This document shows positions 11,682 through 30,815 of a DNA stretch of 64,000 nucleotides, in pieces. How positions within the stretch are numbered: position 1 is the first letter of the stretch; every line of letters begins with the position of its first letter. The stretch is from positions 41,734 to 105,733 of the forward strand of contig NZ_DATLIW010000006.1 of assembly GCF_035539195.1 (NCBI RefSeq), written 5' to 3'. The position numbers and the translations under genes were made by a program. This DNA is from Luteibacter sp. (GTDB lineage Bacteria > Pseudomonadota > Gammaproteobacteria > Xanthomonadales > Rhodanobacteraceae). The notes below the pieces were generated by a model that saw only the letters and a program-made list of their open reading frames with translations, ran no database searches and was not told where the DNA came from.

Positions 11682-11704
11682 AGGCCAGGCTCGGGCACGC
11701 ATCG

Positions 11705-12334: not shown

Positions 12335-12339
12335 GGACA

Positions 12340-12416: not shown

Positions 12417-12421
12417 GGCGA

Positions 12422-14041: not shown

Positions 14042-14225
14042 ACGGTTCGTTACGATTCCGTCATCGATGTGGGGGAGCCGCCGTCGAGAGACGGTGAGCC
14101 CAGGTCGGTCGTGGGGACGATCGACCTGATGAGGCGACAGGATGTCAGCCTCGCCGATGCGAAATGGTGACCCGTGGATCCCGCGAGCAACTCGCGATTC
14201 ACGAACCATGGAAACATCGGATCAA

Positions 14226-14261
14226 GCCGCTGGTGGACAGGAGTCCGCCAGCGGCGTTTTT
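14226..14261 (+). terminator. rho-independent terminator candidate
   Basis: GCCGCTGG-N14-CCAGCGGC followed by GTTTTTATTT. It closes a hairpin-dense 220-nt untranslated stretch after the kinase gene. Confidence 0.5.
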
Positions 14262-14362
14262 ATTTGGGAAAGCCTTTATTTGGGAAAGCCTTTAATTGTG
14301 GGAGCCGCTTCAGCGGCGATTGCCAGGCTGCCGTGCCCGTCGCCGGCACAGCCGGCTCCTCC
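14258..14362. repeat. 16-bp tandem (TTTATTTGGGAAAGCC x2 plus a degenerate third copy) merging into a REP pair
   Basis: The third copy, TTTAATTGTGGGAGCC, runs into REP TGTGGGAGCCGCTTCAGCGGCGAT (14297-14320). An inverted variant GTCGCCGGCACAGCCGGCTCC follows at about 14337-14360. Confidence 0.7.
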
Positions 14363-14383
14363 AAAAGCCCTCGCCCACCAAAG

Positions 14384-14410
14384 AAAAAGGCTCCCATAGG
14401 GAGCCTTTTC
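14384..14410. terminator. bidirectional rho-independent terminator (serves fur on the minus strand)
   Basis: AAAAAGGCTCCC-ATA-GGGAGCCTTTTC. The 7-bp GC stem is flanked by an A-run and a T-run, 29 nt downstream of the fur stop. Confidence 0.65.
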
Positions 14411-14438
14411 ATGCCTGCCAAGCCGTAAAGACCCCGCC

Positions 14439-14852
14439 TCAGCGCTTCTTCTTGGGTCGCACGTACAGCACCAGGCTGTGATCTTCGATCACGTACCCAT
14501 GACGCTCCGCGATTTCATGCTGGAGGCGCTCGATCTCCTCGCTGATGAACTCGATGACCTTCCCGCTGTCCACATCGATCATGTGGTCATGATGCTTGCC
14601 GCGGTCCAGCTCGTAGACGGCCTGCCCACCCTCGAAGTTGTGCTTCATGACGATGCCGGCAGCTTCGAACTGGGTCAGCACCCGATACACCGTGGCAAGC
14701 CCGATGTCTTCCTGGTGCGCAAGCAGACGCTTGTAGATATCTTCGGCGGTCAGGTGGCGCTCGTCCGCCTCCTCGAAGATCTGCAGGATCCGCATGCGCG
14801 GATGTGTGACTTTAAGCCCCGCCTTACGCAGTTCTTTTGTTTCCTGGTCCAT
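14439..14852 (-). CDS. fur: ferric uptake regulator Fur
   Basis: 137 aa with a DNA-binding helix (ATVYRVLTQFEAAGIV), the metal-site motif HHDHMID and ...EDHSLVLYV. Confidence 0.95.
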   Translation of the reverse strand: MDQETKELRKAGLKVTHPRMRILQIFEEADERHLTAEDIYKRLLAHQEDIGLATVYRVLTQFEAAGIVMKHNFEGGQAVYELDRGKHHDHMIDVDSGKVIEFISEEIERLQHEIAERHGYVIEDHSLVLYVRPKKKR

Positions 14853-14924
14853 TGGGACCCCCTCGCGGTGCCGTCAGGCGCTTAGTGTATCATCGCAGGC
14901 TTCACGATCCGGACGTTACTACGC

Positions 14925-15395
14925 ATGCAAAAGCTCATTCGCCGCACGCTGGGTATGGCCATGATGGCGGTCGCCATCGAGGGCTGCAGCCTTCTCTATA
15001 CCCCCGACGTGCAGCAGGGCAACCTGCTCGACAAGAAAAATGTCGAACAGCTGCAGCCGGGTCTGACCAAGCGCCAGGTCCTGGTGCTGCTGGGCACCCC
15101 TTCGGTGGCCTCCCCCTTCGATAACGACCGCTGGGACTACGTCTCCACGTTCTCGCATCGTGGCGGCAAGATGACCACCCGTACGCTCACGCTGACCTTC
15201 AATAACGACACCCTGGTCCGTACCGAAGGCGATTTCTTCGCCCAGGACGCCCAGCAGCTGTTGAAGGACTCCAAGAAGTACAAGAACGATCCGGTCAACG
15301 GCACCAAGGGTGACAAGAACACCAGCGCCAACGACAAGAAGGATGACGACCAGGGCGGCATCTTCGGCGGCAGCTCGTCGGACGACAAGAAGTAA
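14925..15395 (+). CDS. bamE: outer membrane protein assembly factor BamE (SmpA/OmlA lipoprotein)
   Basis: Lipobox AIEGC, then YTPDVQQGNLLDKKNVEQLQPGLTKRQVLVLLGTPS...FDNDRWDYV. The Asp/Lys/Gly-rich C-terminal tail is extra. Synteny with rnfH-ratA-smpB-ssrA matches E. coli. Confidence 0.85.
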   Translation: MQKLIRRTLGMAMMAVAIEGCSLLYTPDVQQGNLLDKKNVEQLQPGLTKRQVLVLLGTPSVASPFDNDRWDYVSTFSHRGGKMTTRTLTLTFNNDTLVRTEGDFFAQDAQQLLKDSKKYKNDPVNGTKGDKNTSANDKKDDDQGGIFGGSSSDDKK

Positions 15396-15403
15396 CAGGC
15401 CTC

Positions 15404-15682
15404 TCAGGCGCCGCGCTTGGCGCGGCGCCGCCTGGCCTCCATCGGATCGAGTGTCAGCGGCCGGTACAGCTCCACCCGGTCGCCCTCCTCCAGGACTCGG
15501 TCCGCGGCGACTTTCTTCGCGAAAATGCCCAGCCTGTCCGGGTCGGGCATGACTCCCTTGGGTAAACCGCCCGCCGCCAGCTCGACCGCCTGCCAGGCGG
15601 TTGTCCCCGACGGAACGACCAGTGCAAGGACGACCTGCCCTTCCGGGCCGACGTAGGCGACCTCGACAGCCAGCTCAGCCAT
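15404..15682 (-). CDS. rnfH: RnfH/RatB family ubiquitin-fold protein
   Basis: 92 aa (VEVAYVGPEGQ...GIFAKKVAADRVLEEGDRVELYRPL). It overlaps ratA by 8 nt, as in the conserved ratA-ratB pair. Confidence 0.85.
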   Translation of the reverse strand: MAELAVEVAYVGPEGQVVLALVVPSGTTAWQAVELAAGGLPKGVMPDPDRLGIFAKKVAADRVLEEGDRVELYRPLTLDPMEARRRRAKRGA

Positions 15683-16103
15683 ACTGCCGGCGCGCCTCGT
15701 CGCAGAAGTCGTCGACCATGCGGTTGGCCAGTTGCTGGAAGCCCATCCTCAGCACCGAACCACCCAGCCCGGCGTAGTCGAAGTCCAGCGCCAGGGCGAT
15801 CTTGCAGCCCACATCGCCCAACGCCTGGAAGGTGAACACCCCATCCAGCGAGCGAAACGGGCCCTCGACGAATTTCATGGCCAGGCTATTCGGCTTGTCC
15901 ATCGTGTTACGGGTAGTGAAACTCTGCTTCAGCCCGGCGAACTTGAGATCCAGCCTGGCCACCAGCACGTTGTCTTCCCGCTCGAGCACTTCGGCGGCGT
16001 CACACCAGCCGAAGCGCTTTGGGTATGCTTCCACATCGTTGACCAGGTCGAACATCTGCGCGGGCGTGAAAGGCACGATCGCACTGCGGCGGATTTCAAT
16101 CAC
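15675..16103 (-). CDS. ratA: SRPBCC/START-fold protein RatA (Coq10-like ubiquinone-binding / ribosome association toxin family)
   Basis: 142 aa (VPFTPAQMFDLVNDVEAYPKRFGWC...). It is divergent from smpB, as in enterobacteria. Confidence 0.85.
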   Translation of the reverse strand: MIEIRRSAIVPFTPAQMFDLVNDVEAYPKRFGWCDAAEVLEREDNVLVARLDLKFAGLKQSFTTRNTMDKPNSLAMKFVEGPFRSLDGVFTFQALGDVGCKIALALDFDYAGLGGSVLRMGFQQLANRMVDDFCDEARRQYG

Positions 16104-16183
16104 TGCTTTGACCTCGTCTCATTTGCCGGCTCACGGACCCGCCGGCCTTGTATCAGGGATCCGATAGACCGATTTTAGCGGAC

Positions 16184-16684
16184 ATGGCAAAAGCGAAACC
16201 GAAGGACACGGAAAAAGAAGGCGGCGGCACGATCGCGCTGAACAAGCGCGCGCGCCACGAATATCACATCGACCAGCGCTTCGAGTGCGGCATGGCCCTG
16301 CAAGGCTGGGAACTGAAGTCCCTGCGCGCGGGCCGGATCAATTTCGGCGAAGGCTGCTACGCGATCATCCAGCACGGTGAGGTCTTCCTCGTCGGCGCCC
16401 AGATCCCGCCCCTGATCAGCGCCTCCACCCACGTGATCGCCAACGACCGGCGCACCCGCAAGCTGCTCCTGCACCGCGAGGAGATCGACCGCCTGATCGG
16501 CGCCGTCGAGCGCAAGGGCTACACCCTCGTGCCCACCGCGATGTACTGGAAGAACAACAAGGTGAAGTGCGAGATCGGCCTGGCCAAGGGTAAGCAGGAC
16601 CACGACAAGCGCACCGCGGAGAAAGAACGTGAGTGGGCGGTCGACAAACAACGGGTCATGCGCTCCCACAACAAGTTGGGCTGA
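16184..16684 (+). CDS. smpB: SsrA-binding protein SmpB
   Basis: From ORF 16148..16684(+), with the start at MAKAKPK (ATG 16184). It contains [29 protein letters not shown] and the basic C-tail [10 protein letters not shown]. It lies immediately upstream of tmRNA. Confidence 0.95.
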
Positions 16685-16707
16685 CCTGAACGGACGGGCG
16701 GCGCCCA

Positions 16708-16736
16708 TTGTGGGTGGCCTGCCCCGGCCATATACT
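16708..16736 (+). promoter_or_regulatory. sigma70-type promoter for ssrA
   Basis: TTGTGG-N17-TATACT ends about 30 nt upstream of the mature tmRNA 5' end. This is consistent with a short RNase P-processed leader. Confidence 0.5.
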
Positions 16737-16766
16737 GCTAGATGTAGTCACACCACAGTTTTCCCC

Positions 16767-17161
<395 letters not shown>

Positions 17162-17171
17162 ATCGACGCTC

Positions 17172-17208
17172 GGGCCAAGGCTTAAACCCTTGGCCCGATT
17201 GCGTTTTT
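17172..17208 (+). terminator. rho-independent terminator of ssrA
   Basis: GGGCCAAGG-CTTAAAC-CCTTGGCCC followed by GATTGCGTTTTT. Confidence 0.6.
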
Positions 17209-17434
17209 AGCGCCGCATTTCGATGACCCAAACGACCCTTCGAGGTATCGTTTGAGGTATCGATTTTGCCGAAACCCTATTTTCTTCAGCGCCCGTCCGG
17301 CATCTAACGTCAGACCCGCCCAATCGTTCCCTGTTCGCAAAGGAATGACTACGAAAGGGGCAACGCGTCTTTAGTCGTCAAGTTCTGCGGCCCCTCGCCG
17401 CGACGGGGCCGCAGAACCTGACGACCACACGGCC

Positions 17435-17893
17435 CTACCGACCGTCCTTTTTTGCGGATCCCGCCGCGATGCGCTTGGTCTCCTCGTAGACGTCCTTTGC
17501 TTCCTTCAACGGCGCGGAGTTGCCACAGCTATCCACGAAGTCCATTTCCGGGGAATGCTGAACGAAAAGAAGATAGGGAACATTGAGGTCCATCGGAAAG
17601 CGTGAAGATGTGTTGACCGAGAACAGCCATAACCTCTTCGCCGGCTTACCCTTGATGACTTCCCGTGCCTTCACGATGTAAATCGTATAGCTGGACATGC
17701 CATCGTCGTTGTCATCTGGCACGTCATGGCTCTCGATCGCTGTGCCGACCATCACAATGGGTGTCTTGGCGAACTCTTCCGCTACCTTGGGGTTCCCGTC
17801 CAGACAGGCCGCTGACGCGCCCCCTCCCCAGAATAAAAGGAGTCCAAATATGGCAACGGATAGACCAGCGCGACGGACAGATGTTGCTGTCAT
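17435..17893 (-). CDS. secreted hypothetical protein (TIMP/NTR-like pattern, see findings)
   Basis: From ORF 17435..18250(-). The start is placed at the internal Met that gives a textbook signal peptide (MTATSVRRAGLSVAIFGLLLFWGGGASAA|C). A 13-bp-stem hairpin (17382-17417) follows the stop. Confidence 0.6.
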   Translation of the reverse strand: MTATSVRRAGLSVAIFGLLLFWGGGASAACLDGNPKVAEEFAKTPIVMVGTAIESHDVPDDNDDGMSSYTIYIVKAREVIKGKPAKRLWLFSVNTSSRFPMDLNVPYLLFVQHSPEMDFVDSCGNSAPLKEAKDVYEETKRIAAGSAKKDGR

Positions 17894-18301
17894 AGAGTGA
17901 CCTTGACGTCGTCCCACTTTTTCGGCACCGCTGAAAACTGGAGTTAAGGTCGCCTCATCCACAGGCCCACGGGGTCGACAGAAGAAGATGACGGATATTA
18001 TGGAGGCTCGCTGAATCGACCTTACAAAGTGCGCGCAAGCAAACGCTGCGCAAGATTCCAAACGCTTCATTTCCCTGTCCCCTGTTTGCCCACCGTCGTC
18101 GCGCGAGCCGCGTGTGCATTCTGTGATTATCCGGCGTGCCAGGGCATATCTTTCCGGAGCTTGCCGGTACACGACATTTAGCGGCATAAGTGGACCGCTA
18201 AAAACAAAGTCAATTTTGCAAACACTCGCCCGCCGCGTGACCGTGTGCATACGACCGTGGCACGTAAGCTGCCTGATGAGTGTCTGCCGAGTTGCAAAAA
18301 T

Positions 18302-18811
18302 CTATTTGGTGACCGACTTTATAAAGTCTTCCAGCCTCCCCGGTTCAGGGAAATCGGCTAGCGTGAGCTGTCGCAGGTTTGTACCGGAATCTTGAAGGAC
18401 TCGATCAAGCTCGTCAGCCACGGTCTGCGTCGCGCCGACGATAGTGACGTCGTGTTCCGCGAGTACTGCGATGGTTTGAGAACCGTTGTACGCAACCCAT
18501 TCCACCGCGCCCTGAACCGACCAGCCCGGAATGTAGAGAAACGAGTCCCAGTCAAACGAAAACGATACGGGATCCGGCTGAGGCATCTCTGACCCAGCGT
18601 AGCCGCAAATCCACCAACAAGAGTCCTCGCTCGCTTCTCGAAGCGCTTCCCAGAGCAGCTTTGGCATGGCGTGCCACTCATACTTATCACGGTCAAGAAC
18701 TGCGCCTCGCCAGCTTTTTCTGGCGAATCCGTCCTGTGCGCCCTCGTCCTCGACGAAAAAAGATCGTCGAGCCTCGTCAATCTTCATTGGCCTCGGAGAA
18801 TTCATACTCAC
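18302..18811 (-). CDS. putative cognate immunity protein of the Rhs-core toxin (hypothetical, acidic, Trp-rich)
   Basis: 169-aa ORF whose ATG overlaps the toxin stop as ATGA (18808-18811). It has no signal peptide or TM helix. The position and coupling are typical of polymorphic-toxin immunity genes. Confidence 0.55.
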   Translation of the reverse strand: MSMNSPRPMKIDEARRSFFVEDEGAQDGFARKSWRGAVLDRDKYEWHAMPKLLWEALREASEDSCWWICGYAGSEMPQPDPVSFSFDWDSFLYIPGWSVQGAVEWVAYNGSQTIAVLAEHDVTIVGATQTVADELDRVLQDSGTNLRQLTLADFPEPGRLEDFIKSVTK

Positions 18812-19707
18812 GATCCCCCTGGAGCTTCAGATTTTGGCTGAGGTTGAGGTGGCGGTGGCGGCTTCGGAAAACGAACGGTGCCGATGATTTTTCCGCTCGG
18901 ATCGGTGATCTTGATGCTCGGCGTCCCTTGTGGATACTGACTCTTTGTACTGTTGTGTAAATCAGCGACGCCGCCATCGGACAAGACCTTCACTTTCGCG
19001 CTGCCCTTGTCTTCCTCCGTGCCGTCGATTTTGTCCCAAGCCTCCTTCTCCCCTCCGGCCACTCCTTCACGCTCCCCTTTTTTTCCTGCTGTCCCGACCG
19101 CGGGACTGGTGCCTTCAAAGATCTTGTCTTTCGCCTCTCCCGACGTCGGTGCTTCATTGAAAACGATAGAGCCCGTGCCTGGTTGCTGACGGTTTACCTG
19201 GTCGACGATCATGTAAGTGGCGTAGCCAGCACCCGCTGCCACAATGACCGCGCCGCCTACATAGACGACCTCAGCCGCGCAAGGCGCACACTTACCCGTC
19301 GGGTCAGACAAACTGACCGGGTTGTTGTTGACGTATGCGTACCTGTTCCCATCAAACACATTTCCCGCAGTGGGAACAATTGGGTCAACGGACAAGAACC
19401 GGCCGATTGCGGGATCGTAGTATCGGGCTTGCATGTAGACAAGCCCGGTGTCCGGATCACCGACGTGGCCGGTATATCCTGGGCCAGCCGCTTGGCTTCC
19501 GATGCTGTTCTGACCGAAGGGCCGATAGTCGGCTTGTGAGGTTATGTTGCCCGCGGCGTCGGCAGTTGCGAGTACGGACCCTAGCGAGTCACTGTAGTAA
19601 TAGGTAACGCTTCTCGATTGCGCGCTTACTGAGCCACTAACGCACACGGCGACTAGTGCGGCCCCTCTCGCCAGAAGTCGAAGTCTGAGAACCAGAGGGT
19701 TCATCAT
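18808..19707 (-). CDS. signal-peptide-bearing RHS repeat-associated core domain protein with variable C-terminal domain
   Basis: The signal peptide is MMNPLVLRLRLLARGAALVAVCVSGSVSA|QS. YD repeats follow (VTYYYSDSLGSVLATADAAGNITSQADYRPFGQ). The Rhs core is GYTGHVGDPDTGLVYMQARYYDPAIGRFLSVDP...NRYAYVNNNPVSLSDPTG. A 161-aa non-conserved C-terminal region completes the protein. Confidence 0.85.
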   Translation of the reverse strand: MMNPLVLRLRLLARGAALVAVCVSGSVSAQSRSVTYYYSDSLGSVLATADAAGNITSQADYRPFGQNSIGSQAAGPGYTGHVGDPDTGLVYMQARYYDPAIGRFLSVDPIVPTAGNVFDGNRYAYVNNNPVSLSDPTGKCAPCAAEVVYVGGAVIVAAGAGYATYMIVDQVNRQQPGTGSIVFNEAPTSGEAKDKIFEGTSPAVGTAGKKGEREGVAGGEKEAWDKIDGTEEDKGSAKVKVLSDGGVADLHNSTKSQYPQGTPSIKITDPSGKIIGTVRFPKPPPPPQPQPKSEAPGGS

Positions 19708-20379
19708 TTACCCTTGATGTTTAAAAGTTGATGACCCGAGGTCTCAACGCGATGCACCGAAGTGCTGGTGCGCAGCAAAAGGGCGTATGACTGACTTAAT
19801 CGGGCAAACGGACGCCATTTGTTACGCCCGGAGACACGACCTCCTGAAACGGGCGCTATGCACATCGCAGCGGCTCGTTGTAAGCCAAGACTCGAGTCCG
19901 ACGGTGAAAAACACCCTGGCTCTCACTCAGGATGATGATGCATACAAGGGCTTGTCAGTCGCGTCGAGGACTTCATCCACTTCGCGGGTCAAGCAGTAAA
20001 ACTCCGGCCGACGAAGAGAAATCGCCCTCACGACGCAGCACCTCTCTCCGGATGCTGCCGAGACTTCGCCCAACACCGTATGTCGCGCAGGAAACGAAAA
20101 ACCCGTCAACTCCGGCGAGCCGACGACCTGACGTTCGTACATTCCGTTGCCCCTTCTTCTGGCGCGCTGCCAGGTCGCAAAAACCTACGCCCCCCACAAG
20201 AATGTGTCAACACACTCCATCAAGTCGCACATGATCACTCCGAAAGTCGGAGTGCTCGCCAGTGCGCTCTTCGAATTGCGCCGATATGCGCTGCTGATCG
20301 GCCGTCATTTAGACGAGCCCCCCACCAGCCCGAGCATCAATTTGAATCGACGGAATCTGGATGTCGCTAGGAATTCTCT

Positions 20380-20946
20380 TCAGGATGAATGGCCCGCAGG
20401 ATCTTCTTTCTTGAACGACAAGGATTTCAGAAGCTGCTGATAGATCTTCCGCACCTTCGGTACCTCGTCGGCCGGCGCCACCATGATGGCTTGGCCGTCC
20501 GCAAACACGGTCCGCACGGGGGCGCTGAACGAGACAATCTCGTTCACCATCTCCTGGTGTTCCACCGTTCCTCTGCGCTGCTCTAACCATGCCTGCGTGC
20601 CATCCAACTCGACAACGGTCGAACCAGGTGGGCGAGTTGGCTTTTCGTCTTCTTCTACCCGCCATCCGACCAAAATGACGATGCAGCTTGAGTGGGACCC
20701 AACCGGGAAGATGTCGAACCCGTGGAAAGGGGCGTCATCTGCGACACCACCCCACCCCGTCTCCCCATTAGGAACGCTGATGACCATGTGATAGTCGTCA
20801 TTCACCACGCGACCTCGATACGCGACCCCCGTTCCCGGTGACCCCGTAGTGAAGTCCGCGCACGTCCGGACAGATTGATTCTCGCTTCCCCATACCGGCG
20901 AGAGCGTGGATGCGACAACGAGCACTGCCAGGGCGTATAGGCGCAT
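20380..20946 (-). CDS. secreted hypothetical protein
   Basis: 188-aa ORF with the signal peptide MRLYALAVLVVASTLSPVWG|SE. No recognisable motif was seen. Confidence 0.6.
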   Translation of the reverse strand: MRLYALAVLVVASTLSPVWGSENQSVRTCADFTTGSPGTGVAYRGRVVNDDYHMVISVPNGETGWGGVADDAPFHGFDIFPVGSHSSCIVILVGWRVEEDEKPTRPPGSTVVELDGTQAWLEQRRGTVEHQEMVNEIVSFSAPVRTVFADGQAIMVAPADEVPKVRKIYQQLLKSLSFKKEDPAGHSS

Positions 20947-21306
20947 GTCTATATCTCAGATCAGAAGCTACTTATACCGATCCATCAGGAAACCAGGGGA
21001 GCGCCGATCCTCACCCGCGCAAGATCGGCTTGCTTGGTCGTTGGGGTAGTGGAAAGCCGAGCCGCAACGTTACTGGGCAAAGTTAAAGGAGACAGCGAAT
21101 GGGTGTCTGTAGGGGAAGTCCTACATTTCCGAATAATACGATGGCTATCGCAAGCGATCAGGCAAGCGGATCGCGTGGATTTTTAGACAACCCGGGCATC
21201 CCGAGACAGCGCCGCTCCCTGGGCGACCCTCCCGTCAACTGATCCTCCGGCGGCGCCCGAACTGCATCACGCTTCAATGCCGGGCAGTAGCCGGAATGCA
21301 CCTGAA

Positions 21307-22014
21307 TCATCCGCGCCCCGCACCCGCCCCCGGCAACACATAAAACAACACAGCGAAGTAATGCAAAACACTTCCCGCCAACACAAACAAATGCCACAGC
21401 GAATGGTGAAACGGCAACCGCTTTGCCAGATAGAACGGAACACCCGCCGTATAGGCAACACCGCCCGCCACCAACAGCATCAGGCCGTCCTTCGGCACGT
21501 GACCTGCCAGCGGCTGGAACGTGGCGATCGCGCCCCATCCCATGGCGACGTACAGGAACACGGCCGCATGGTGATAACGCCTCAAGATGCCTAGCTCGAG
21601 CACCGTGCCGGCGATGGCAAGCAGCCAAATCGCCCCGAACAAGACAAAGCCCCACGTTTCGGGCATCGCGATAAGCGCGAAGGGGGTATAGGTGCCCGCG
21701 ATCAGCCAGTAGATGCCCACATGGTCGAGCGTCCGAAGAAAGCTCTGGGCGCGGTGATTCTTAAGGGTGTGATAAAGGGTCGAAGCGGTAAAGAGGAAAA
21801 TCAGTGTCGCCCCATAGAGCGCACTGGCGAACACCGCAAGAGGACCACCATACGAGGTCGCTTTCGCCACCAGGGCGACGAGCCCGGCGACGCTGAGCCC
21901 GACGGCCAGCCCATGGACGATGCAACTACCCAACTCGTCGATGCGTGCATAGGGAACAGAAGCGAGGTCCGGGTCCGTAGCCATCTGGGAATCCACTCGA
22001 AGGCAAGGGCCCAT
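21307..22014 (-). CDS. hemolysin III / PAQR family channel protein
   Basis: Seven hydrophobic helices with the family motifs LDHVGIYWLIAGTYTPF and HSLWHLFVLAGSVLHY. The alternative start MATDPDL at 21984 is equally possible. Confidence 0.85.
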   Translation of the reverse strand: MGPCLRVDSQMATDPDLASVPYARIDELGSCIVHGLAVGLSVAGLVALVAKATSYGGPLAVFASALYGATLIFLFTASTLYHTLKNHRAQSFLRTLDHVGIYWLIAGTYTPFALIAMPETWGFVLFGAIWLLAIAGTVLELGILRRYHHAAVFLYVAMGWGAIATFQPLAGHVPKDGLMLLVAGGVAYTAGVPFYLAKRLPFHHSLWHLFVLAGSVLHYFAVLFYVLPGAGAGRG

Positions 22015-22123
22015 CGTGCCAGCGTGGTATTGCAGTTGTAGCTTGACAAACCGTCCGCCCCCACTTATTCATTGCCGCCGAGCCTTTACGCTGCAACCAA
22101 GCATGGATTAGGGGAAAAGGAAG

Positions 22124-24175
22124 ATGCATCGGTCCGTATGGTTGTACCTCTCTTTAGGCCTTCTTGCGTTATGCCTGAGCACAGGCGCCCTCGCCCAGGA
22201 TGCGTGCTCGTTTAAATCCGGTGGCGATAAGTCCACCGGACTGACCTTCGGAGCCGGCATAACATCGCCCGGCCTGCCCGCCCGGAGCGCCATTGCGCAA
22301 TTGAAGGACATCGCCACCGCGAAGGGGTTCGATGTCGACCAGGGTAACGTCCAGGGGTCACAGGGATCGCTGACCATTCATCAGAAAGCGAGCGGAACCG
22401 CGCGAGGCTTTCCGCTCTTCATCACGGCCACCGATGCTGGCGCGGTCAATCTCGACGTGACGCTTCCCGCAGGCATGATGGTAAAACCGGACGATATGCG
22501 CGGGGCGATATGCGGCATGCTCGCGCAGGTGAAAAACTCCGGTGGCGCCGTCGCGGCCGCCGCACCGGATAGTCACGCCCCGACCGCCAGCGCCCTGCCC
22601 AGCGCGGCGATGCTATTCGGGCCGGTGGACTCCACGAAGCTCTGCATGACGAACTTCACGACGGCGCTGAACGACGACGAGGGCAGCGCGTACTCCACGT
22701 GGACCATGGCACCCAGCATCGATCCGCACGATGCGATCGCGAGCATGAAGAAGTTCATCGCTGCGATGAAGGACTGGGAGGTTCTTGTTGAGGACTATCA
22801 CGGCCATCAGGGCGAGTTGACCGTCGCGATGAAGAGTATCGATGCGGTCAGGGATTCGGGCTACAGCTTTAACGGTCCAGATAAACGAGGTTTCCCCTTC
22901 CACGTCACGGTGGACGGTGATCTTGCCGCGATTTCCTTCGTGGCCCAGGTAAACCCGGATCAGACGAATATCAACGCCGCTCATATGGAATACCTGGCCT
23001 GCGGCCTGCTCGCTGGGGCCACCCACTCCGAGTTGCCGCCGGATCTGTCGAGAACGGGTGCGGGATCGCTTCCCGCTCAATCGTCGTCCCGCCTAGCGAA
23101 CCTGTTCAAGACCCGCAAGACACTCGTTAAAGAGATAACGCAACAGGCCGCCGACAAACTGAAGGCCAGGCAGGACGCGAGTGCGACGCTGTATCGAAGG
23201 GCGCTTGCCTCCGGCAAGGCCGTCGTTGTCATGCCGATGGTGGATATCGGGGAGAAATACAAGAATGCGGGCCTGCCGACACCGGGTACGGACAGCTATC
23301 CCGATTACAGCCTGGACCGGAACTCCGCCATCATCTGGCAGAAAGACGGCGATCCAAAGAGCATCCTCAAGGTCGGCTATCCGCAATCCATGGATCGTGT
23401 CGGACTGCACGGCTACCTGACAGGCATCGATGCCGGCAAGTCGTATTACATGTTTTACATCGTCGATCCGGGTACGTATTCGCTTGTTGGCAATACCTAC
23501 AAGTTGCTTCGAACGAACTTTCCGGACATGAGCGCGAAGCAGTGGCAAGCGAAGCCGAAGATCGGCCTCGCCTCACTGACCGCAACGAAGGAGAAGGAGT
23601 TCTACCAGACACAGGAATGGTTCGCTGCGCAATATGGTAGTAAGACCGTCTTCGACGGCACCTACTGCGACATGATGATGGTCGGTGGCGCGGGCGGCGG
23701 TGGCTGCGCACACATGTCCGAGGCCTCTCACAGCGAAACCGTGACGACCGATCCGGGCGGTTGGCGTAGCATCCTGCACGCAAAAATGGTCGACGGCGTC
23801 GCGGTGGCAACCAAGCTCACCCGCCCCTTCGCAAAGGTCAGCGTAGGTGCCGGCGAAGCGGTTGTCGTCGATGGCTTTTATAACGACAGCAATAACACCG
23901 CCCTGAACACGGATGGCTGCAATCAGGCCGACTCGAACCTGGTGAACTGCGCAATCAAGACGTTCACGCTGCATCGCATTCCCTCCCGCGTCGGCGACCT
24001 CAACGACGGTCCGGGCAACGCCATGGATTCGCTGTATCTGATCAACGATCGCCTGCCTTTCAGCAAGGACATCATCAAGACTCGCCAGCTGAATGTTTTG
24101 GCGAGCCCCGCAGATGCCAAGATCGGCACGTTCGAAGCGGGGTGGGCGAAGCCGTACTCCTTGTCAACTCAGTAG
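22124..24175 (+). CDS. large secreted hypothetical protein (683 aa) with duplicated N-terminal domain
   Basis: The signal peptide is MHRSVWLYLSLGLLALCLSTGALA|QD. The long uninterrupted ORF sits in a lower-GC context. There is an internal repeat (aa about 52-136 versus about 201-298). It is divergent from the PAQR gene. Confidence 0.75.
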   Translation: MHRSVWLYLSLGLLALCLSTGALAQDACSFKSGGDKSTGLTFGAGITSPGLPARSAIAQLKDIATAKGFDVDQGNVQGSQGSLTIHQKASGTARGFPLFITATDAGAVNLDVTLPAGMMVKPDDMRGAICGMLAQVKNSGGAVAAAAPDSHAPTASALPSAAMLFGPVDSTKLCMTNFTTALNDDEGSAYSTWTMAPSIDPHDAIASMKKFIAAMKDWEVLVEDYHGHQGELTVAMKSIDAVRDSGYSFNGPDKRGFPFHVTVDGDLAAISFVAQVNPDQTNINAAHMEYLACGLLAGATHSELPPDLSRTGAGSLPAQSSSRLANLFKTRKTLVKEITQQAADKLKARQDASATLYRRALASGKAVVVMPMVDIGEKYKNAGLPTPGTDSYPDYSLDRNSAIIWQKDGDPKSILKVGYPQSMDRVGLHGYLTGIDAGKSYYMFYIVDPGTYSLVGNTYKLLRTNFPDMSAKQWQAKPKIGLASLTATKEKEFYQTQEWFAAQYGSKTVFDGTYCDMMMVGGAGGGGCAHMSEASHSETVTTDPGGWRSILHAKMVDGVAVATKLTRPFAKVSVGAGEAVVVDGFYNDSNNTALNTDGCNQADSNLVNCAIKTFTLHRIPSRVGDLNDGPGNAMDSLYLINDRLPFSKDIIKTRQLNVLASPADAKIGTFEAGWAKPYSLSTQ

Positions 24176-24741
24176 CGGCGAGTCTGAGTCACGCAGAAAG
24201 AATCGCTTGCCGAGGCGAGGGGTTCTTTCATGTTTGGAGGGAGGGCCTCTGTGGATCGGCGCGGCCGCGCTTGTAGTCACGAGTCTGGTTAGACCAACCG
24301 AGCGGGTCATCGGGGAGGTCCGAGAAATGCGAAGCCTCATGCACGCCGTCGTCATATATTTGTCTTCCGCATGGCCGATCGTGTCGACGAAGTAGCCGCG
24401 TGAGGCTGCGTGCGTATTGAAGCCACTCGGCGGCCTCGTTCATCAGGTCTTTCTGCGCTCTCGCAACCATCCACGCGCGGACTTCGAAACTTCGGAGCCA
24501 TACGACGCGAAAGCGTCTCGGTCGAAGGCCTTCGGCGAGGTAGACGCACGGCTACGCGTCCGACCTTACGCGCTTGTAGCCGATCGAACGCTGCACAACT
24601 TTCCGTTTGCAAACGACGGATTAGCCAACCTCTTGCCGGAAAAGCGCCCGCCTTGTGTGGTGTACGGCCATGTTCGGCCCGGTATCGTTCTCGTGGGTGA
24701 TGGCTCGGCCACACCCGTCCTTCCACCTACTGGAGCACGCC

Positions 24742-24918
24742 ATGTACGCACTCGTCCGCCCGACCCTGATCGTTGCCGCCCTGCTTGCCCTCTCCTGCGG
24801 TGTCGCCGTGGCCAAGACGACGGCGCACACCGCCGCCGGTGCCAGCACGCAACAGACCCCGCATGCCGTCGACGCCGTACGTTGCAAGAATCCGGCGGAA
24901 TGCAGCGTTCCGCGTTAA
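24742..24918 (+). CDS. possible small secreted peptide (58 aa)
   Basis: An internal Met of ORF 24655..24918 gives MYALVRPTLIVAALLALSCGVAVA|KTT..., followed by a 34-aa mature part ending in a CKNPAEC loop. No homology could be judged. Confidence 0.35.
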   Translation: MYALVRPTLIVAALLALSCGVAVAKTTAHTAAGASTQQTPHAVDAVRCKNPAECSVPR

Positions 24919-25937
24919 GGCGGGGTCGCCTGCGCACCGCGCCGACCCGCGCGCATGGGAAGTCTTGCGCCGACCATGAGCGCCGCTGAAAGGAACAGTG
25001 CCAGGACCACCTGGCACTGGATCATGGCCGGATCGAGCAAGGCCGTGCCGGTAGCCGCCAGGGCGATGCTTGCGCCCATGCCAGCGATCGCCGTGCCGTG
25101 CCACCCATGGCGCACCGCCAGGACCAGAACGGGCAACAGCAAGGCCAATCGCGCCGCCTGACGGAGACCATCGTGCTGCGTCGCCAGTGCAAGCCAGGCG
25201 AGGCCGAACAAGACCGGGACCACCCACAACACGACGTCGCGAAGCAGTGGGCTGCCCCAGAGGGACGCCCCGGTCGCTTGCACGTCGCCGCCGGCGCGCT
25301 CGCGCAAGGCGAGAATCGTCGGCGTAAGCGTCAGGGCACCGAGATAGGCGCCCAACACATAAGCCCAGAAATACGTGGCGACCGAAATATCCGGCCAGGC
25401 CTCCGGCGAATGCAGCAACGCCGTCATCAGCGTCACGACCGTCTTTACCGCCGTCAGCACCGCGCAGCCGAGCGTCGCGGCCAGGACCATGCCCATTCTC
25501 AGCTGTCCATCCGCCGTATAGAGGCTCCATCGCTGCCGCAGCGGCTGGACCCAGGCCATGCACAGCACGATCATCGGCACCGAGGCGGAGACTGCCCACG
25601 CGAGGCCGAACTGCGGCATGCACAGCACCGCGTTTTCAATCATGGGAAGCGCTTCGCCGGCGGCGAGCGCAGGCCAGTAGCGCCGTGGCATGAGCAGGAG
25701 GCAGGCCAGGCGAAGGCCGGCCGTGAGTATCCAGTGGGAGAAGGTCACATGGCGTGTGACCTCGTAGCAAGCCGCGTACGCGGCGGCTACCGCAAGGTGC
25801 TGGCCCCATGCATTCCATCGCGCGGCGCGTCCGTTCACTGCTTCCCCTGGCGGGTGGTCTGGAGGCCGAAGGATGCCATGAACCTGACCGGCCACGCCGT
25901 CCGAAACTGCGGCACTGCCGACAAAGGAGAACACCAT
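24915..25937 (-). CDS. stand-alone MASE1-like integral membrane sensor domain protein
   Basis: 340 aa, all hydrophobic helices with no output domain. It is clearly paralogous to the N-terminus of the kinase at 12422. Compare SHWILTAGLRLACLLLMPRRYWPAL with YWVLPFGLRFGALLLMRTRNWFWIL, and LAVRHGWHGTAIAGMG with FAFRHGWRGAGLAMLI. Confidence 0.7.
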   Translation of the reverse strand: MVFSFVGSAAVSDGVAGQVHGILRPPDHPPGEAVNGRAARWNAWGQHLAVAAAYAACYEVTRHVTFSHWILTAGLRLACLLLMPRRYWPALAAGEALPMIENAVLCMPQFGLAWAVSASVPMIVLCMAWVQPLRQRWSLYTADGQLRMGMVLAATLGCAVLTAVKTVVTLMTALLHSPEAWPDISVATYFWAYVLGAYLGALTLTPTILALRERAGGDVQATGASLWGSPLLRDVVLWVVPVLFGLAWLALATQHDGLRQAARLALLLPVLVLAVRHGWHGTAIAGMGASIALAATGTALLDPAMIQCQVVLALFLSAALMVGARLPMRAGRRGAQATPP

Positions 25938-25961
25938 GCCGAAAATGCATGGCGTTCATCG

Positions 25962-27476
25962 TTAGTCCACCAAGGTCGCCGCGGTCGCCTGCTCGGTGTT
26001 GTGAACTGCCCGCTTACGTGGCAGGAAGCTCGCCGCGATCAGCCCGAGTACGACCACGCCGAGCGCCCAGACAAAGGTGTGCCCGAAGGCGCGGCCGAGC
26101 GCAGGCAGGATTGCCGTGTGCATCGCAGGCGTCATGGTGCGGACAACGGCAAGGCCGGTTTCCTGCACGCCGGTCGAGGGCATCACACTGGCGATCTGGT
26201 GCGACAGCACCACCGCCAGCAATGCGGTACCCACGGAGCCGCCGACGCGCTGCACGACATTCATGCCGCTGGTGACACGCGCGATTTCGTGGCGCTGCAA
26301 GCTGCTCAGCGCGGCCGTCATCGACGGCATCATCGTCGAACCCATGCCCAGGCCGAGCAGGAACAGCATGCCCTCGACCATCCACATCGGTGTATCGCTC
26401 TGAATCTGGGTGAGCCCCACAAGACCGAGCGCCGTCATGGAAAGACCGACCAGCACGATGCGTCCGGGGCCGGTCTTGTCGGTCAGGCGGGCGGCGATCG
26501 GCATGGAGATCATCGCACCGATGCCCTGTGCCGCCATCAACAGGCCGGCACTCAACGCGGACTCGTTGCGCACCAGTTGGAAGTAAAGCGGCAGCAAGAG
26601 CGCGGTGCCGAAGAAGGCCGTACCGAAGAAAAACGACGTGGAGGCCGCGGCGCCAACGATACGCGTACCGAACAGGCGCACATCGATCAGGGCGCCTTCC
26701 TTGCGACGCGCATGCCAGACGAAGCCGATGACCAGGGCAAGACCCAACAGCACGCCGCCCACGGCGTCGGGCCGGCTGAAGCCACCGCCAGCCGCCGTCT
26801 CGGCCAGCCCGTAGACGAAGATCGCCAGACCCGGCGAGAGCATCAGCAAGCCGCGCCAGTCGAGCGAGTGATGCGGCTTGGGCTCGTCGCGTTCGAGGAA
26901 ACGGGACGCCGCGAACAACGCGACCACGCCGATCGGCAGGTTCACGAAGAAGATCCAGCGCCAGGACAGATCGTCGACGAACCAGCCACCGAGGATGGGA
27001 CCGACGATCGGCGCGACCAACATCGGTATGCCGACCAGTCCCATCACCCGTCCCATGCGTTCACGTCCGGCCGCGTGGGAGAGGATGGTCATGCCGGCGG
27101 GCATGATCATCCCGCCGCCGAAACCCTGCAGCACGCGGAAGACGATCAGCGAGGTCGCCGACCAAGCCAGTCCGCATAGCGCGGACCCGATCACGAACAA
27201 CGCGATGGAGCCGATGTACAGGCGCTTGGTGCCGAAGCGGTCGGCAGCCCATCCGGTCAGCGGGATCACCGTGGCGAGCGCCAGCATGTAGCCGGTGGAG
27301 ATCCACTGCGTGACCGACAGCGACGTGCCGAACGAGTGCGACAACTCACGAATGGCGACATTGACGATCGTGGTGTCGAGGATCGACATGAAACTGCCGA
27401 GGACGACGACGGAAGCGATGCTCAGCAACCGGCGGTCGAGCGTCGGCGACGCGGCGGTCTGGGTGGGGCCATTCAT
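25962..27476 (-). CDS. MFS efflux transporter, DHA2 (EmrB/QacA, 14-TMS) family
   Basis: 504 aa with LGSFMSILDTTIVNVAI, motif A-like GWAADRFGTKRL and motif C-like GPILGGW. About 14 helices. It overlaps the upstream MarR gene by 4 nt. Confidence 0.9.
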   Translation of the reverse strand: MNGPTQTAASPTLDRRLLSIASVVVLGSFMSILDTTIVNVAIRELSHSFGTSLSVTQWISTGYMLALATVIPLTGWAADRFGTKRLYIGSIALFVIGSALCGLAWSATSLIVFRVLQGFGGGMIMPAGMTILSHAAGRERMGRVMGLVGIPMLVAPIVGPILGGWFVDDLSWRWIFFVNLPIGVVALFAASRFLERDEPKPHHSLDWRGLLMLSPGLAIFVYGLAETAAGGGFSRPDAVGGVLLGLALVIGFVWHARRKEGALIDVRLFGTRIVGAAASTSFFFGTAFFGTALLLPLYFQLVRNESALSAGLLMAAQGIGAMISMPIAARLTDKTGPGRIVLVGLSMTALGLVGLTQIQSDTPMWMVEGMLFLLGLGMGSTMMPSMTAALSSLQRHEIARVTSGMNVVQRVGGSVGTALLAVVLSHQIASVMPSTGVQETGLAVVRTMTPAMHTAILPALGRAFGHTFVWALGVVVLGLIAASFLPRKRAVHNTEQATAATLVD

Positions 27477-27991
27477 TCGGGCTTTTCCGGAGAGCAGTAG
27501 GAGGCGCCGGTGGGGACGGCGAAATGCTTGCGGGTGAGAACGCCGAGGGTGGTCAGCGCACCGGCGAGATCGGCACGCTCCTCTTCCGTGAGCGCCTCGA
27601 CAAAGCGTTCGGCGGATCGACCGCGAGCGCGGCCGATCTTCTCGAGCGTTTCGCGCCCCGGCTCGGCCAGACCGATGCGCTTGATGCGCCGGTCCGCTTC
27701 GTCTTCCCGCCGCGTAAGCAGGCCGACGCGAACCATGCCGTCCACGGCGCGCCCGGCGGCCGGAAGCGACAGGGAAACCATCTCGGCCAGCTCGGTCACG
27801 GCGAGGTCGGAGCCAGAGTTATCGAGGATCCACAGCATGCGCAGCTGCGAAAAGGTCAGGTCGAAACCGGCCATGACCGCAGCCACGCCGGCCTGGCTGT
27901 CCTTGATGATGGGCATGAGCACGCCCATAAGTTCGGCCGCGAGCGGATGTGTGTCTGGAGGTAGCTTATGCATAGGCGCAATAGTACTCAT
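27473..27991 (-). CDS. MarR family transcriptional regulator
   Basis: From ORF 27473..28150(-), with the start at MSTIAPMHKL (ATG 27991; MHKL at 27973 is also possible). The winged HTH is LTFSQLRMLWILDNSGSDLAVTELAEMVSLSLPAAGRAVDGMVRVGLLTRREDEADRR. Confidence 0.88.
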   Translation of the reverse strand: MSTIAPMHKLPPDTHPLAAELMGVLMPIIKDSQAGVAAVMAGFDLTFSQLRMLWILDNSGSDLAVTELAEMVSLSLPAAGRAVDGMVRVGLLTRREDEADRRIKRIGLAEPGRETLEKIGRARGRSAERFVEALTEEERADLAGALTTLGVLTRKHFAVPTGASYCSPEKPE

Positions 27992-28078
27992 CTGAGCAAT
28001 AGTTGCAAGTGCGCAAGTATATAAGCATACGACGCAAGGCTGATGCCGCCTTCGCGGTAGGCCGCCTATGCTCGATCC

Positions 28079-28360
28079 ATGGCCACCATCGACAAAGAAA
28101 CCATACTCAGCCGCAGCCGCCTGGCGCTGGATGCGTCGGCGATCGGGCATGCCGTGATGGAAGGCGACATGGAGGAAGCGCGCTTTCGCGCCTATCTCCT
28201 GCGCAGCCAGGCCTCCGAACTGGGGCTCGAGGACGTCGAGAAAGCGGCGCTGATGGTTGTCGTGATGCTGCCCAGCGACGAGGGCATGCCCAAACGCGGC
28301 ATTGGCCGGGCCATGTCGCGGCTTTGCGACACCCTCGACATCCGGCGTTGGGCACCGTAG
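28079..28360 (+). CDS. hypothetical small protein (93 aa)
   Basis: An ATG-initiated ORF divergent from the MarR-MFS operon, with plausible composition and no recognisable motif. Confidence 0.4.
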   Translation: MATIDKETILSRSRLALDASAIGHAVMEGDMEEARFRAYLLRSQASELGLEDVEKAALMVVVMLPSDEGMPKRGIGRAMSRLCDTLDIRRWAP

Positions 28361-28391
28361 CCAGCCCGCATCCGCAGGCCTTCCCCTTCGC

Positions 28392-29306
28392 TCATTTGAA
28401 CGTGGCGAGCCACTTCAGCACGGCCTGCGACAGCTCGGTGCGCTGGTCCGAATAAGCGTGGTCGGTGGGCAGATGAAGGCTCGTTACCTGGGTGTCGCCA
28501 GCCCGACGAAGCGCGTTGGCGAACGCGTCATTCGCAGGAGCCAGACCATCGTCCGAGGTGATCACGAAGGCTGGCCGATGCGCGAGCCCTCCAACCTTGG
28601 AAAGAAATGCCCAGGCAGCCGCGTGCTCCGCCAGATCCGTGGCCAGGCTATCGGGCGTACATCCACTGAGCGGCGCCAGCCCCTCCTCCGCCAGTGCCGC
28701 ACCCATCTTCTTGACCGCCACGGTTTGCGATCCCTGCTCCTGCGCCTGCATCTGGACAAACCTGCCGGCGAGGTCCGCAGCCGAGATCATCGCTATGCCC
28801 TCGATGGCAGGGTCGGCGGCAGCGGCCTGCACGGCCATGAAGCCGCCCATGCTGTGACCGACCAGCACGATGCGCGAAGGATCCAGCCGCAGCCGCTTGG
28901 CGTTCTCGGGCTGGCGCAGGTAAGCGATAGCGGACGCCACGTCTTCGATGCTGTGCGAGAACGAGAAGTCGCCCGGCGTTCCCCATGAACCGCGATAGTT
29001 GAAGAACAGGACGTCCCATCCGGCGCGACGCATGTCCTGCGCGAGATCCAGGTTGCGCTCGTTGCCGGGAAAGCCGTGCAGCAGGATCACGACCGGATGC
29101 GGCTGGGCGCCGGCGGCCACGTACACCAGGGCATTCAACGCAGATCCATGACTGGGAATCTGCATCGTTTGCATCGACGCCTTGGCGGCGACGTCAGGCT
29201 TGGCGAGTAAGGCCGGCTTCGCTGCCTCATCGGCGTGTGCCGCGGTGACTGCCATCGATAGCAGCAAGGAAACCGCCAAGCGCGTAACGGTCGAATGGAT
29301 CTTCAT
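28392..29306 (-). CDS. secreted alpha/beta hydrolase (dienelactone hydrolase / S9-like)
   Basis: Signal peptide MKIHSTVTRLAVSLLLSMAVTAAHA, oxyanion region VVILLHGFPG, nucleophile elbow GHSMGG, and a late Asp/His (SDDG...TDHAY). Confidence 0.85.
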   Translation of the reverse strand: MKIHSTVTRLAVSLLLSMAVTAAHADEAAKPALLAKPDVAAKASMQTMQIPSHGSALNALVYVAAGAQPHPVVILLHGFPGNERNLDLAQDMRRAGWDVLFFNYRGSWGTPGDFSFSHSIEDVASAIAYLRQPENAKRLRLDPSRIVLVGHSMGGFMAVQAAAADPAIEGIAMISAADLAGRFVQMQAQEQGSQTVAVKKMGAALAEEGLAPLSGCTPDSLATDLAEHAAAWAFLSKVGGLAHRPAFVITSDDGLAPANDAFANALRRAGDTQVTSLHLPTDHAYSDQRTELSQAVLKWLATFK

Positions 29307-30752: not shown

Positions 30753-30815
30753 ATCGGGCGCAATATGCAGGTAGCGGCCAGTCGGCAGCTCGCAAGAAAA
30801 TGAGGAGCCAACCCT

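Follow-up and report, generated by a model that had tools for sequence, protein, structure and literature searches.

What kind of DNA follows the transfer-messenger RNA (tmRNA) gene ssrA in this Luteibacter chromosome (Rhodanobacteraceae), and how might it have come to be there? In the 64-kb stretch that we analyzed (hereafter 'the window'), ssrA is followed by a region of lowered guanine-plus-cytosine (GC) content. A model that read the sequence (the 'original prediction') had proposed a single integrase-less island there, at positions 17210-24741, encoding mainly secreted orphan proteins and an Rhs-type toxin module. We consider it probable that the interval between ssrA and a conserved pair of MFS and MarR genes (17162-25961) is a chromosomal plasticity zone of a single Luteibacter lineage, composed of an ssrA-integrated island that has lost its integrase, an array of Rhs cassettes, a backbone trhA gene and a separate segment (segment B).

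Composition and synteny downstream of ssrA

The SmpB protein encoded in the window is 98% identical to SmpB of Luteibacter sp. dw_328 and sp. OK325. The GC content of positions 17210-24741 is 0.5815, compared to 0.6516 for the remaining window, and the lowest-GC segment of this size in the whole 64 kb begins at position 16701. A 400-nt GC profile stays at 0.54-0.64 across 16.8-24.6 kb and is back to 0.65-0.69 at ∼24.7 kb. GC content at third codon positions (GC3) separates the six genes of the zone (0.60-0.75) from 13 flanking genes (0.77-0.88) without overlap (Mann-Whitney p = 3.5e-4), and is a better discriminator than overall GC because nearby core genes of low GC content, such as fur (0.58) and bamE (0.60), keep a GC3 of ∼0.8 (0.78-0.86 for genes of this type). 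Tetranucleotide usage deviates strongly at 16.5-21.5 kb (z up to 3.2) and weakly at 21.5-24.7 kb (z < 1), and the compositional deviation is therefore two-tiered. Coding density is also reduced, to 0.68 in 17210-24741 versus 0.95 in 25962-36303, with gaps at 17894-18301, 19708-20379, 20947-21306 and 24176-24741. The drops in composition and in coding density that had been proposed, together with those four gaps, are thus real, and the six 60-nt GC counts offered for the former were reproduced exactly (55.0, 55.0, 61.7, 51.7, 80.0 and 66.7%). All six open reading frames (ORFs) of the zone match independent gene calls on a public contig, apparently from the same organism; two of them were set shorter than their longest version (152 aa rather than 271 aa for one, and 161-169 aa for the immunity gene described below).

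We compared the window to 80 smpB loci, each with 10 kb on either side. Conservation of the left flank (fur-bamE-rnfH-ratA-smpB-ssrA) extends across the family, and in 20 Luteibacter genomes the DNA on this side of ssrA remains collinear over more than 11 kb, at 78-94% identity. Among the blastn alignments listed, those of the Luteibacter loci end at window positions 17161-17166 (one metagenome-assembled genome at 17162), with a single exception that runs to 17300. The 3′ end of ssrA is where synteny breaks and where the variable zone begins on its left side. Beyond it the DNA differs between Luteibacter species, and in those species as well it is often of lower GC content. None of the genes located between ssrA and trhA in the window (segment A) was found after ssrA in the 20 Luteibacter genomes, as expected of acquired rather than core DNA, and the proteins from 17.4-25.8 kb fall into 90%-identity clusters with only 1-5 members each, compared to 54 and 35 members for the MFS transporter (MFS504) and MarR protein (MarR166) of the right flank.

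In two of the loci compared (L003 and L009, the latter from Luteibacter sp. UNCMF331Sha3.1) the first gene after ssrA encodes a tyrosine integrase (PF00589), which in L009 also contains a DUF6538 N-terminal domain, and in a third (L010) a shortened integrase homologue with sub-threshold Pfam scores occupies the same site. Because these genes adjoin ssrA, we conclude that ssrA is an active integration site in Luteibacter. The L009 island additionally contains a ParA-like ATPase. A right-hand attachment site (attR) was looked for in the window in two ways: the last 25 nt of ssrA, with up to three mismatches allowed, had no second match anywhere in it, and a blastn-short search with the last 155 nt of ssrA plus the terminator returned only scattered chance matches of 10-14 nt. 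The earlier statement that the ssrA 3′ end has no second copy was therefore correct. The integrase-bearing relatives likewise have no repeat of the ssrA end within 9.5 kb.

A relic of the integrase gene

The one alignment that continues past ssrA runs from position 17100, inside ssrA, to 17300, and is 84% identical (172/204 nt) to L009. The part of it that lies beyond ssrA is also common to L010, and in both L009 and L010 it leads into the PF00589/DUF6538 tyrosine integrase. In the window, the corresponding reading frame starts with TTG and continues for 13 codons (TTG CCG AAA CCC TAT TTT CTT CAG CGC CCG TCC GGC ATC, encoding LPKPYFLQRPSGI) before a TAA stop codon. Comparison by tblastn of the N-termini of the integrases from L009, L010 and L003 gave MPKPYFIPRPSGLYVRF... 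for L009 and LPKPYILKRPAGWYARF... for L003. Because the homology to the integrases stops at the stop codon of the stub, the integrase is not merely absent: 13 codons of it remain and the rest has been deleted. The original prediction had reported seeing no integrase, which holds for an intact gene (the zone contains no intact integrase, transposase or phage gene and no PF00589 match) but overlooks this stub.

A 12-nt tandem repeat (GAGGTATCGTTT / GAGGTATCGATT, 17242-17265), downstream of the ssrA terminator and upstream of the integrase stub, is kept in the L009 and L010 islands; it may be a binding site for the integrase or for a regulator. A second small feature is a 16-nt inverted match (15/16) between positions 17015-17030, within ssrA, and 17302-17317, where the homology of the stub ends. 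Its score was reached in only 3 of 300 shuffled sequences, and it could be either a product of chance or the trace of a deletion or rearrangement event.

Other searches across the zone gave little. A tblastx comparison of 17162-24914, gaps included, to all fetched loci matched only the region of the integrase stub, trhA and the 683-aa gene, and uncovered no other remnants; a similarity search of 17162-25000 against plasmid and phage DNA found no match; PADLOC returned nothing, PHROGs matched only the Rhs core, and a sigma-70 promoter scan of the variable zone found no sites.

Mosaic structure around trhA

The variable zone is interrupted by a gene with a different history. The PAQR/hemolysin-III protein TrhA matches NF011669 over its full length (227.6 bits; cut-off 80), as well as TIGR01065 (184.8 bits; cut-off 172.2) and PF03006 (E = 2.7e-35), and according to NCBIfam is a housekeeping-type membrane-homeostasis protein, contrary to the earlier view that none of the six genes looked like a housekeeping gene. 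The gene is syntenic in dw_328, OK325 and two further loci (L098 and L100), with a DNA identity of 81% that resembles the 80-84% of the right flank. It is therefore a backbone gene, with at least two variable segments around it, and the region is a mosaic in which trhA separates segment A (17.2-21.3 kb) from segment B (22.0-25.9 kb).

The gene orders illustrate this. In the window, ssrA is followed by the integrase stub, the 152-aa gene, the immunity gene, the mini-Rhs gene and the 188-aa gene, then by trhA, the 683-aa gene and MASE1, and finally by MFS504, MarR and the remainder of the right flank. In dw_328 (read by way of its MFS gene, which lies on the same contig as its ssrA) the genes between ssrA and trhA encode a histidine kinase, a KaiC-like ATPase, a 147-aa protein and a PhyH protein, and trhA is followed by MASE1, genes for 146-aa and 307-aa proteins, LysR, lactamase_B, HD and cupin genes, MFS504, MarR and further genes. 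In the metagenome contig L098, DUF2306 and PhyH genes separate ssrA from trhA, which is followed by MASE1 and, further on, by MFS504. Counting the window, dw_328, OK325, L098 and L100, the DNA between ssrA and trhA takes at least five forms. In other strains, further genes of biological conflict lie beside trhA: one for a type IV secretion effector of the XVIPCD kind, next to a gene for a signal-peptide protein (L100, 4142-5713), and one for an Abi_C-domain protein (OK325, L002, 15332-16207).

On the right, the window aligns collinearly (blastn) with dw_328 at 80-84% identity, starting at 25963 and reaching at least 35847. The border of the variable zone is at 25962 rather than at 24741, where the original prediction had placed it. 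The first gene beyond the border encodes a DHA2/EmrB-type MFS transporter whose 90%-identity cluster includes dw_328, and the cluster of the adjacent MarR protein includes both dw_328 and OK325.

The identity of the window to dw_328 (L001/L097) is 91-94% left of ssrA (6140-17162) and 80-84% right of the variable zone (25963-35847); from these alignments the flanks seem to have had separate histories, in the way expected if ssrA marked the end of recombination tracts. A further observation concerns L. rhizovicinus (L018, 15740-19616), in which homologues of window positions 60214-63998 (an LD-carboxypeptidase, an AraC-type regulator and the next gene) are located only ∼4.8 kb after ssrA in the same orientation. 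This arrangement points to a large rearrangement or insertion between species. We considered a variable region that reaches 60 kb on the basis of this match and rejected it for the present lineage, given the collinearity with dw_328 to at least 35847 and the ordinary genes, without mobility genes, at 36-64 kb.

A shell-less Rhs toxin candidate and its putative immunity gene

Within segment A, a 298-aa protein (hereafter 'mini-Rhs') combines a Sec signal with the end of an Rhs core and a C-terminal (CT) domain (Table 1). Its match to the Rhs core profile TIGR03696 (E = 2.8e-22; 79 bits, with a cut-off of 32.5) covers profile positions 1-75 of 76 and residues 61-138; the core closes in DPTGK, and a PxxxxDPxG-type motif, NNPVSLSDPTGK, is present before the CT domain. 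The gene is intact, with an ATG start, and no other Rhs core motif is present in the 64 kb, where a tblastn search with four Rhs proteins matched nothing else. The YD-repeat shell of ∼1000 aa or more is missing: matches to RHS_repeat and TEN_YD-shell are sub-threshold and confined to residues 27-132, and the N-terminal part of the protein is modelled at a predicted local distance difference test (pLDDT) score of 30-55. Searches of Pfam and NCBIfam detected no PAAR, VgrG or other domain linked to type VI secretion systems (T6SS) in the protein, and no T6SS genes were present among the ∼30 window ORFs that were scanned. Sec export to the periplasm is the sole delivery step predicted from its sequence.

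A HMMER search for relatives among 1.8 billion representatives returned 217,287 matches, including 409 representatives of 50%-identity clusters at E ≤ 1e-30. Of the best 150, 146 fall below 400 aa in length, and 127 of these begin with what resembles a signal peptide; in the relatives listed, it typically ends in AHA (an AxA-type site) just before a conserved (G)TVTYxYTDPQGTPLAEAD sequence. Most of the best 150 align only over residues ∼15-145, with ∼9-12 extending to residues ∼280-290, and the CT domain of mini-Rhs is also found on proteins of 969 and 1106 aa. Such a combination of a conserved N-terminal part and a variable CT domain is the signature of a polymorphic toxin (Zhang et al., PMC3482391).

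An AlphaFold2 model of the CT domain (residues ∼185-285; pLDDT 80-91) contains three short helices and a five-stranded sheet, and residues G244, H250, G260, K265 and R278 are invariant. The domain is presumably toxic. From the topology of the model and the invariant His, Lys and Arg residues we would guess at a ribonuclease-like alpha+beta domain.

The gene downstream of mini-Rhs encodes a protein of 161-169 aa without a signal peptide, and its GTG start codon overlaps the TGA stop codon of the toxin gene (GTGA, 18808-18811). The Rhs-type toxin module with an immunity gene that had been predicted is borne out by this overlap and by the TIGR03696 core. We found 20 homologues of 161-170 aa, of which the named ones are all from Luteibacter, and no Pfam match. 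In five other contexts the toxin is missing and the homologues belong to arrays of small genes, those for Imm40 and DUF4265 proteins among them; one of these arrays adjoins a 1425-aa Rhs protein and another an XVIPCD-domain effector. Luteibacter is known to carry a bacteria-killing type IV secretion system that uses XVIPCD effectors (PMC6536674). The closest homologue of mini-Rhs (P0012; 53% identity) belongs to a locus in which two mini-Rhs/partner pairs come after the gene for an Rhs protein longer than 1800 aa, and is followed, with a 4-nt overlap, by a 176-aa protein. This partner is distantly related to the immunity family of the window (hhalign probability 84%, E = 7.5e-6), and toxin and partner therefore co-vary. 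The 169-aa protein would neutralize the CT domain.

Tentatively, and with considerable doubt, the sequences of its relatives might place mini-Rhs in a large class of toxins, apparently not described before, that lack the shell (a Sec signal with an AxA site, a core tip of ∼110 aa and a polymorphic CT domain) that would be exported and delivered without a cocoon or T6SS, with the CT domain found here representing a new toxin fold. We found no publication that describes such a class or this CT fold, which is weak evidence given limited literature coverage. The class and the fold are the only parts of the locus that might be new, and the 'so-far undescribed' competition locus of the original prediction was too strong a description for parts that fit the known logic of polymorphic Rhs toxins, immunity proteins and orphans (PMC3482391).

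Two signal-peptide proteins as candidate orphan immunity proteins

Two further genes of segment A encode signal-peptide proteins of 152 and 188 aa, for which a search of the PDB by sequence returned only signal-peptide noise. The first matches nothing in Pfam, NCBIfam, PADLOC, PHROGs or the PDB. A soil metagenome contig (L101) contains a copy of its gene with 94% protein identity and 96% DNA identity; the DNA homology covers positions 17394-17903 only and ends 10 nt before the start codon of the 152-aa gene. In L101, a 4-nt overlap (ATGA) joins this homologue to the end of a large Rhs gene with a different CT domain. Because the homologue directly follows an Rhs CT domain there, and the window contains neither a cognate toxin for the 152-aa protein nor a remnant matching the L101 CT domain, we read the 152-aa gene as an orphan immunity gene. 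Its signal peptide suggests that it acts against a toxin active in the periplasm. The mature protein opens with a cysteine directly after the signal peptide (ASAA|C), and a second conserved cysteine lies near its C-terminus; it may be a lipoprotein, or may adopt an inhibitor-like fold in which the N-terminal cysteine is exposed.

The gene that follows the 152-aa homologue in L101 encodes a 176-aa relative of the 188-aa protein (33% identity, E = 2e-36). Only four homologues of the latter were found (with a concatenated query), and in L100 a 76%-identical homologue adjoins MASE1-trhA, where the ssrA side of trhA carries the XVIPCD effector and signal-peptide protein noted above. We regard the 188-aa protein as a probable second orphan of the immunity type, with less confidence than for the 152-aa protein. 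That the region encodes mainly secreted orphan proteins or effectors, as originally put forward, therefore needs amending for these two, which the gene order in L101 makes best read as periplasmic orphan immunity proteins.

The second variable segment

Segment B begins with a gene for a 683-aa secreted orphan. Ten relatives (55-77% identity), in addition to its own cluster, were found among 5.8 billion clusters, and these stand alone in unrelated neighborhoods. The C-terminal half of the family is highly conserved, with an invariant YCD...GC.H..E..H.ET..DPGGWR sequence (residues 495-548; GC is GGC in one writing) that includes C515, C528, H530, E533, H536 and E538, and further invariant cysteines at C599 and C609. 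The invariant cluster suggests a catalytic or metal site, and the protein is possibly an enzyme with a metal or Cys/His center. Its AlphaFold2 model is poor (pLDDT 50) and does not resolve the domain with the invariant cluster; Foldseek matches (RnlA, BamC, Flpp3 and DcrB) cover two small N-terminal domains only, with template-modelling (TM) scores of ∼0.1-0.5, and are uninformative on function.

The last gene of the variable zone encodes a stand-alone MASE1 membrane-sensor protein. Its 90%-identity cluster has two members, and it is 52-60% identical to the products of the MASE1 genes found at the equivalent place in dw_328.

Table 1. Coordinates, in window numbering, of the features at and downstream of ssrA
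Feature	Position	Strand	Basis and remarks
ssrA (tmRNA), intact	16767-17161	+	ARAGORN; Rfam RF00023, 197 bits, model positions 1-374 of 374
Scar of integrase-bearing ssrA island	17162-17300	+	Homology to left ends of L009 and L010 islands; holds terminator, tandem repeat and integrase 5′ end
ssrA terminator hairpin	17170-17198		Just 3′ of ssrA
Integrase stub	17266-17307	+	TTG start, 13 codons, then TAA; tblastn and DNA alignment
21-nt inverted repeat (hairpin), probable terminator	17374-17425		95% complementary; just downstream of 152-aa gene
152-aa protein, signal peptide, read as orphan periplasmic immunity protein	17435-17893	-	L101 homologue
Candidate mini-Rhs immunity protein, 161-169 aa	18302-18811	-	No signal peptide; overlaps toxin
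Candidate mini-Rhs toxin, 298 aa	18808-19704	-	Sec signal ∼1-29; YD repeat and Rhs-associated core ∼30-138; hydrophobic helix ∼145-170; CT domain ∼185-285
188-aa protein, signal peptide, probable orphan periplasmic immunity-type protein	20380-20946	-	L101 neighborhood
trhA (PAQR/hemolysin-III family), backbone gene, not cargo	21307-21984	-	NF011669; synteny
683-aa secreted orphan, signal peptide	22124-24175	+	Two BamC/DcrB-like N-terminal domains (weak model); conserved C-terminal half
Stand-alone MASE1 membrane-sensor protein, 307 aa	24915-25838	-	PF05231; last gene of variable zone
MFS504 transporter (DHA2/EmrB type)	25962-27476	-	90%-identity cluster, n = 54; first gene of conserved right flank

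Proposed history of the locus and alternative explanations

We propose that at least one island would have integrated at the 3′ end of ssrA by means of a DUF6538-type tyrosine integrase, and that a deletion would then have removed this integrase from codon 14 onward, together with attR, so fixing the remaining DNA in place. The present cargo would have come in with the same integrase, and its cassettes would since have been exchanged by recombination between conserved anchors. The four minus-strand cassettes at 17.4-21.0 kb would then consist of a mini-Rhs toxin that has no shell and is exported by Sec, a cytoplasmic immunity protein translationally coupled to it, and two orphan periplasmic immunity proteins, an array that might provide one toxin with self-protection plus protection against two toxins fired by related neighboring strains. 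In such a history trhA would be the older backbone gene, and the 683-aa orphan and MASE1 would form a second, separately variable segment.

Several points weigh against parts of this proposal. The window contains no attR and no intact mobility gene, and an integrase-mediated origin of the present cargo is read from the 139-nt scar only; the cargo genes are absent from the integrase-bearing islands of L003, L009 and L010 (9.5 kb available), and the cargo may have come by recombination and not with that integrase. The CT domain has neither a Pfam family nor a PDB neighbor (best Foldseek E-value 0.07), and a protein of 298 aa cannot form an Rhs cocoon. The assignment of the 188-aa protein rests on its neighborhood in one short contig (L101), and the rarity of the 152-aa protein is poorly measured, as the homologue search with the concatenated 152- and 188-aa sequences returned relatives of the latter only and not the query's own clusters.

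The most serious competing explanation, which we think possible but less than probable, is a recombination hot spot that never needed an integrase, where cassettes between the anchors (ssrA, trhA and MFS-MarR) are swapped by homologous recombination after transformation or conjugation, and the stub is an older, unrelated scar. Such swapping accounts for at least five fillings of the ssrA-trhA interval in strains with trhA at ∼81% identity, for a drop in identity to dw_328 at ssrA of the kind expected of tracts ending there, for cassette-like limits of the L101 homology (within ∼10-40 nt of the 152-aa gene) and for cargo that is not common to the integrase-bearing islands. It sits less well with a break found, in nearly all genomes compared, only a few bases from the ssrA 3′ end; together with the integrases directly 3′ of ssrA in L003 and L009, the shortened homologue in L010 and the homologous stub, this break points to at least some contribution from site-specific integration, and the two mechanisms are not mutually exclusive. 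A single coherent old island of 7.5 kb (17210-24741), with all six genes as its cargo, is very unlikely by comparison. The continuous lowering of GC over that interval speaks for it, but the gene orders of dw_328 and L098, in which trhA is syntenic and has different DNA on both sides, contradict it; moreover, the tetranucleotide deviation is strong only to ∼21.5 kb, homologues of the 683-aa protein are in unrelated loci, and the conserved flank restarts at 25963 and not at 24741. What survives of the old island that had been predicted is acquired, variable DNA whose integrase has been lost, and what does not is its unity. Scarcely credible, finally, is native, vertically inherited core DNA whose low GC content reflects weak expression or non-coding content: core genes nearby (fur and bamE) do have lowish GC content, but the GC3 of such genes stays above that of the zone genes, the proteins of the zone have close clusters of just a few members, and the position of the segment A genes, which follow ssrA in none of the 20 Luteibacter genomes, already refutes it.

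The role of the toxin gene can be questioned separately. Mini-Rhs might not be deployed at all but be a silent orphan cassette (core tip plus CT domain), serving as recombination stock for a full-length rhs gene elsewhere, with the array acting as an immunity reservoir only. The P0012 locus, with its two pairs after a large Rhs gene, is a classical orphan arrangement, polymorphic toxin cassettes have been described (PMC3482391), and the N-terminal part of mini-Rhs shares 35% identity with the final portion of large Rhs cores. We nevertheless judge this rather unlikely, since the signal-peptide-like N-terminus and AxA-type site of 127 of the 146 short relatives argue for independent translation and export, the mini-Rhs ORF is intact from its ATG start, and no large rhs gene lies within the 64-kb window.

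Other features of the window

One other stretch of the window, at 9500-12000, is a compositional outlier (GC 0.70; tetranucleotide z 2.2-2.5); it is the sole one outside the zone and is conserved in relatives. A manganese (yybP-ykoY) riboswitch at 3492-3667 on the minus strand (65 bits) is unrelated to the ssrA zone.

Comparison with known systems

The locus offers a worked example of how an island at a tmRNA site may decay, with the integrase cut to 13 codons, attR gone, and the cargo kept and then reshuffled around a backbone gene. It also suggests likely roles for three 'hypothetical' Luteibacter families (one cognate and two orphan immunity proteins) and draws attention to two under-studied families, the Sec-signal mini-Rhs toxins, which are abundant in metagenomes, and the rare 683-aa secreted protein with its invariant Cys/His/Glu cluster. 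The general view of such loci is unchanged, and the value of the analysis lies in annotation and in toxin-immunity candidates from a plant- and soil-associated genus.

Islands integrated at ssrA by tyrosine integrases include CP4-57 of E. coli and the vcr islands of Dehalococcoides (PMC3146451). The variable zone resembles them in its position 3′ of ssrA, its synteny break, its deviant composition and its strain-variable cargo, and its relatives likewise carry an integrase at the same place. Unlike those islands, it retains an integrase of 13 codons with no attR repeat and no excisionase, and forms a mosaic with a backbone gene inside it instead of one bounded element; the integrases related to its stub have a DUF6538 N-terminal domain.

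Rhs polymorphic toxin-immunity systems (Zhang et al. 2012, PMC3482391; Jamet and Nassif 2015, PMC4436062) share with the window a core that ends in DPxG with a variable CT domain after the motif, an immunity gene that overlaps the toxin stop codon, stray immunity genes nearby, and the presence of the CT domain on proteins of full-length Rhs size. The candidate toxin in the window differs from them in its length of 298 aa, in having a Sec signal in place of a YD-repeat shell and of any PAAR, VgrG or T6SS-linked domain, and in that neither its CT domain nor its immunity family matches a Pfam family.

Arrays of orphan immunity genes ('poly-immunity') have been described near T6SS and Rhs genes, for example in a Stenotrophomonas Rhs module (preprint 10.64898/2026.07.13.738213). 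As far as the accessible part of that preprint describes them, such clusters and the window alike keep immunity-type genes without cognate toxins, in arrays with Imm40 and DUF4265 proteins; unlike those clusters, the window's array is located at the ssrA hot spot and not beside T6SS or vgrG genes, and two of its putative immunity proteins are periplasmic. The trhA gene product, by its full-length NF011669 match, shows no difference from TrhA/YqfA (PAQR, hemolysin-III). Set beside these systems, the locus is a fairly ordinary bacterial competition locus and not a new kind of system.

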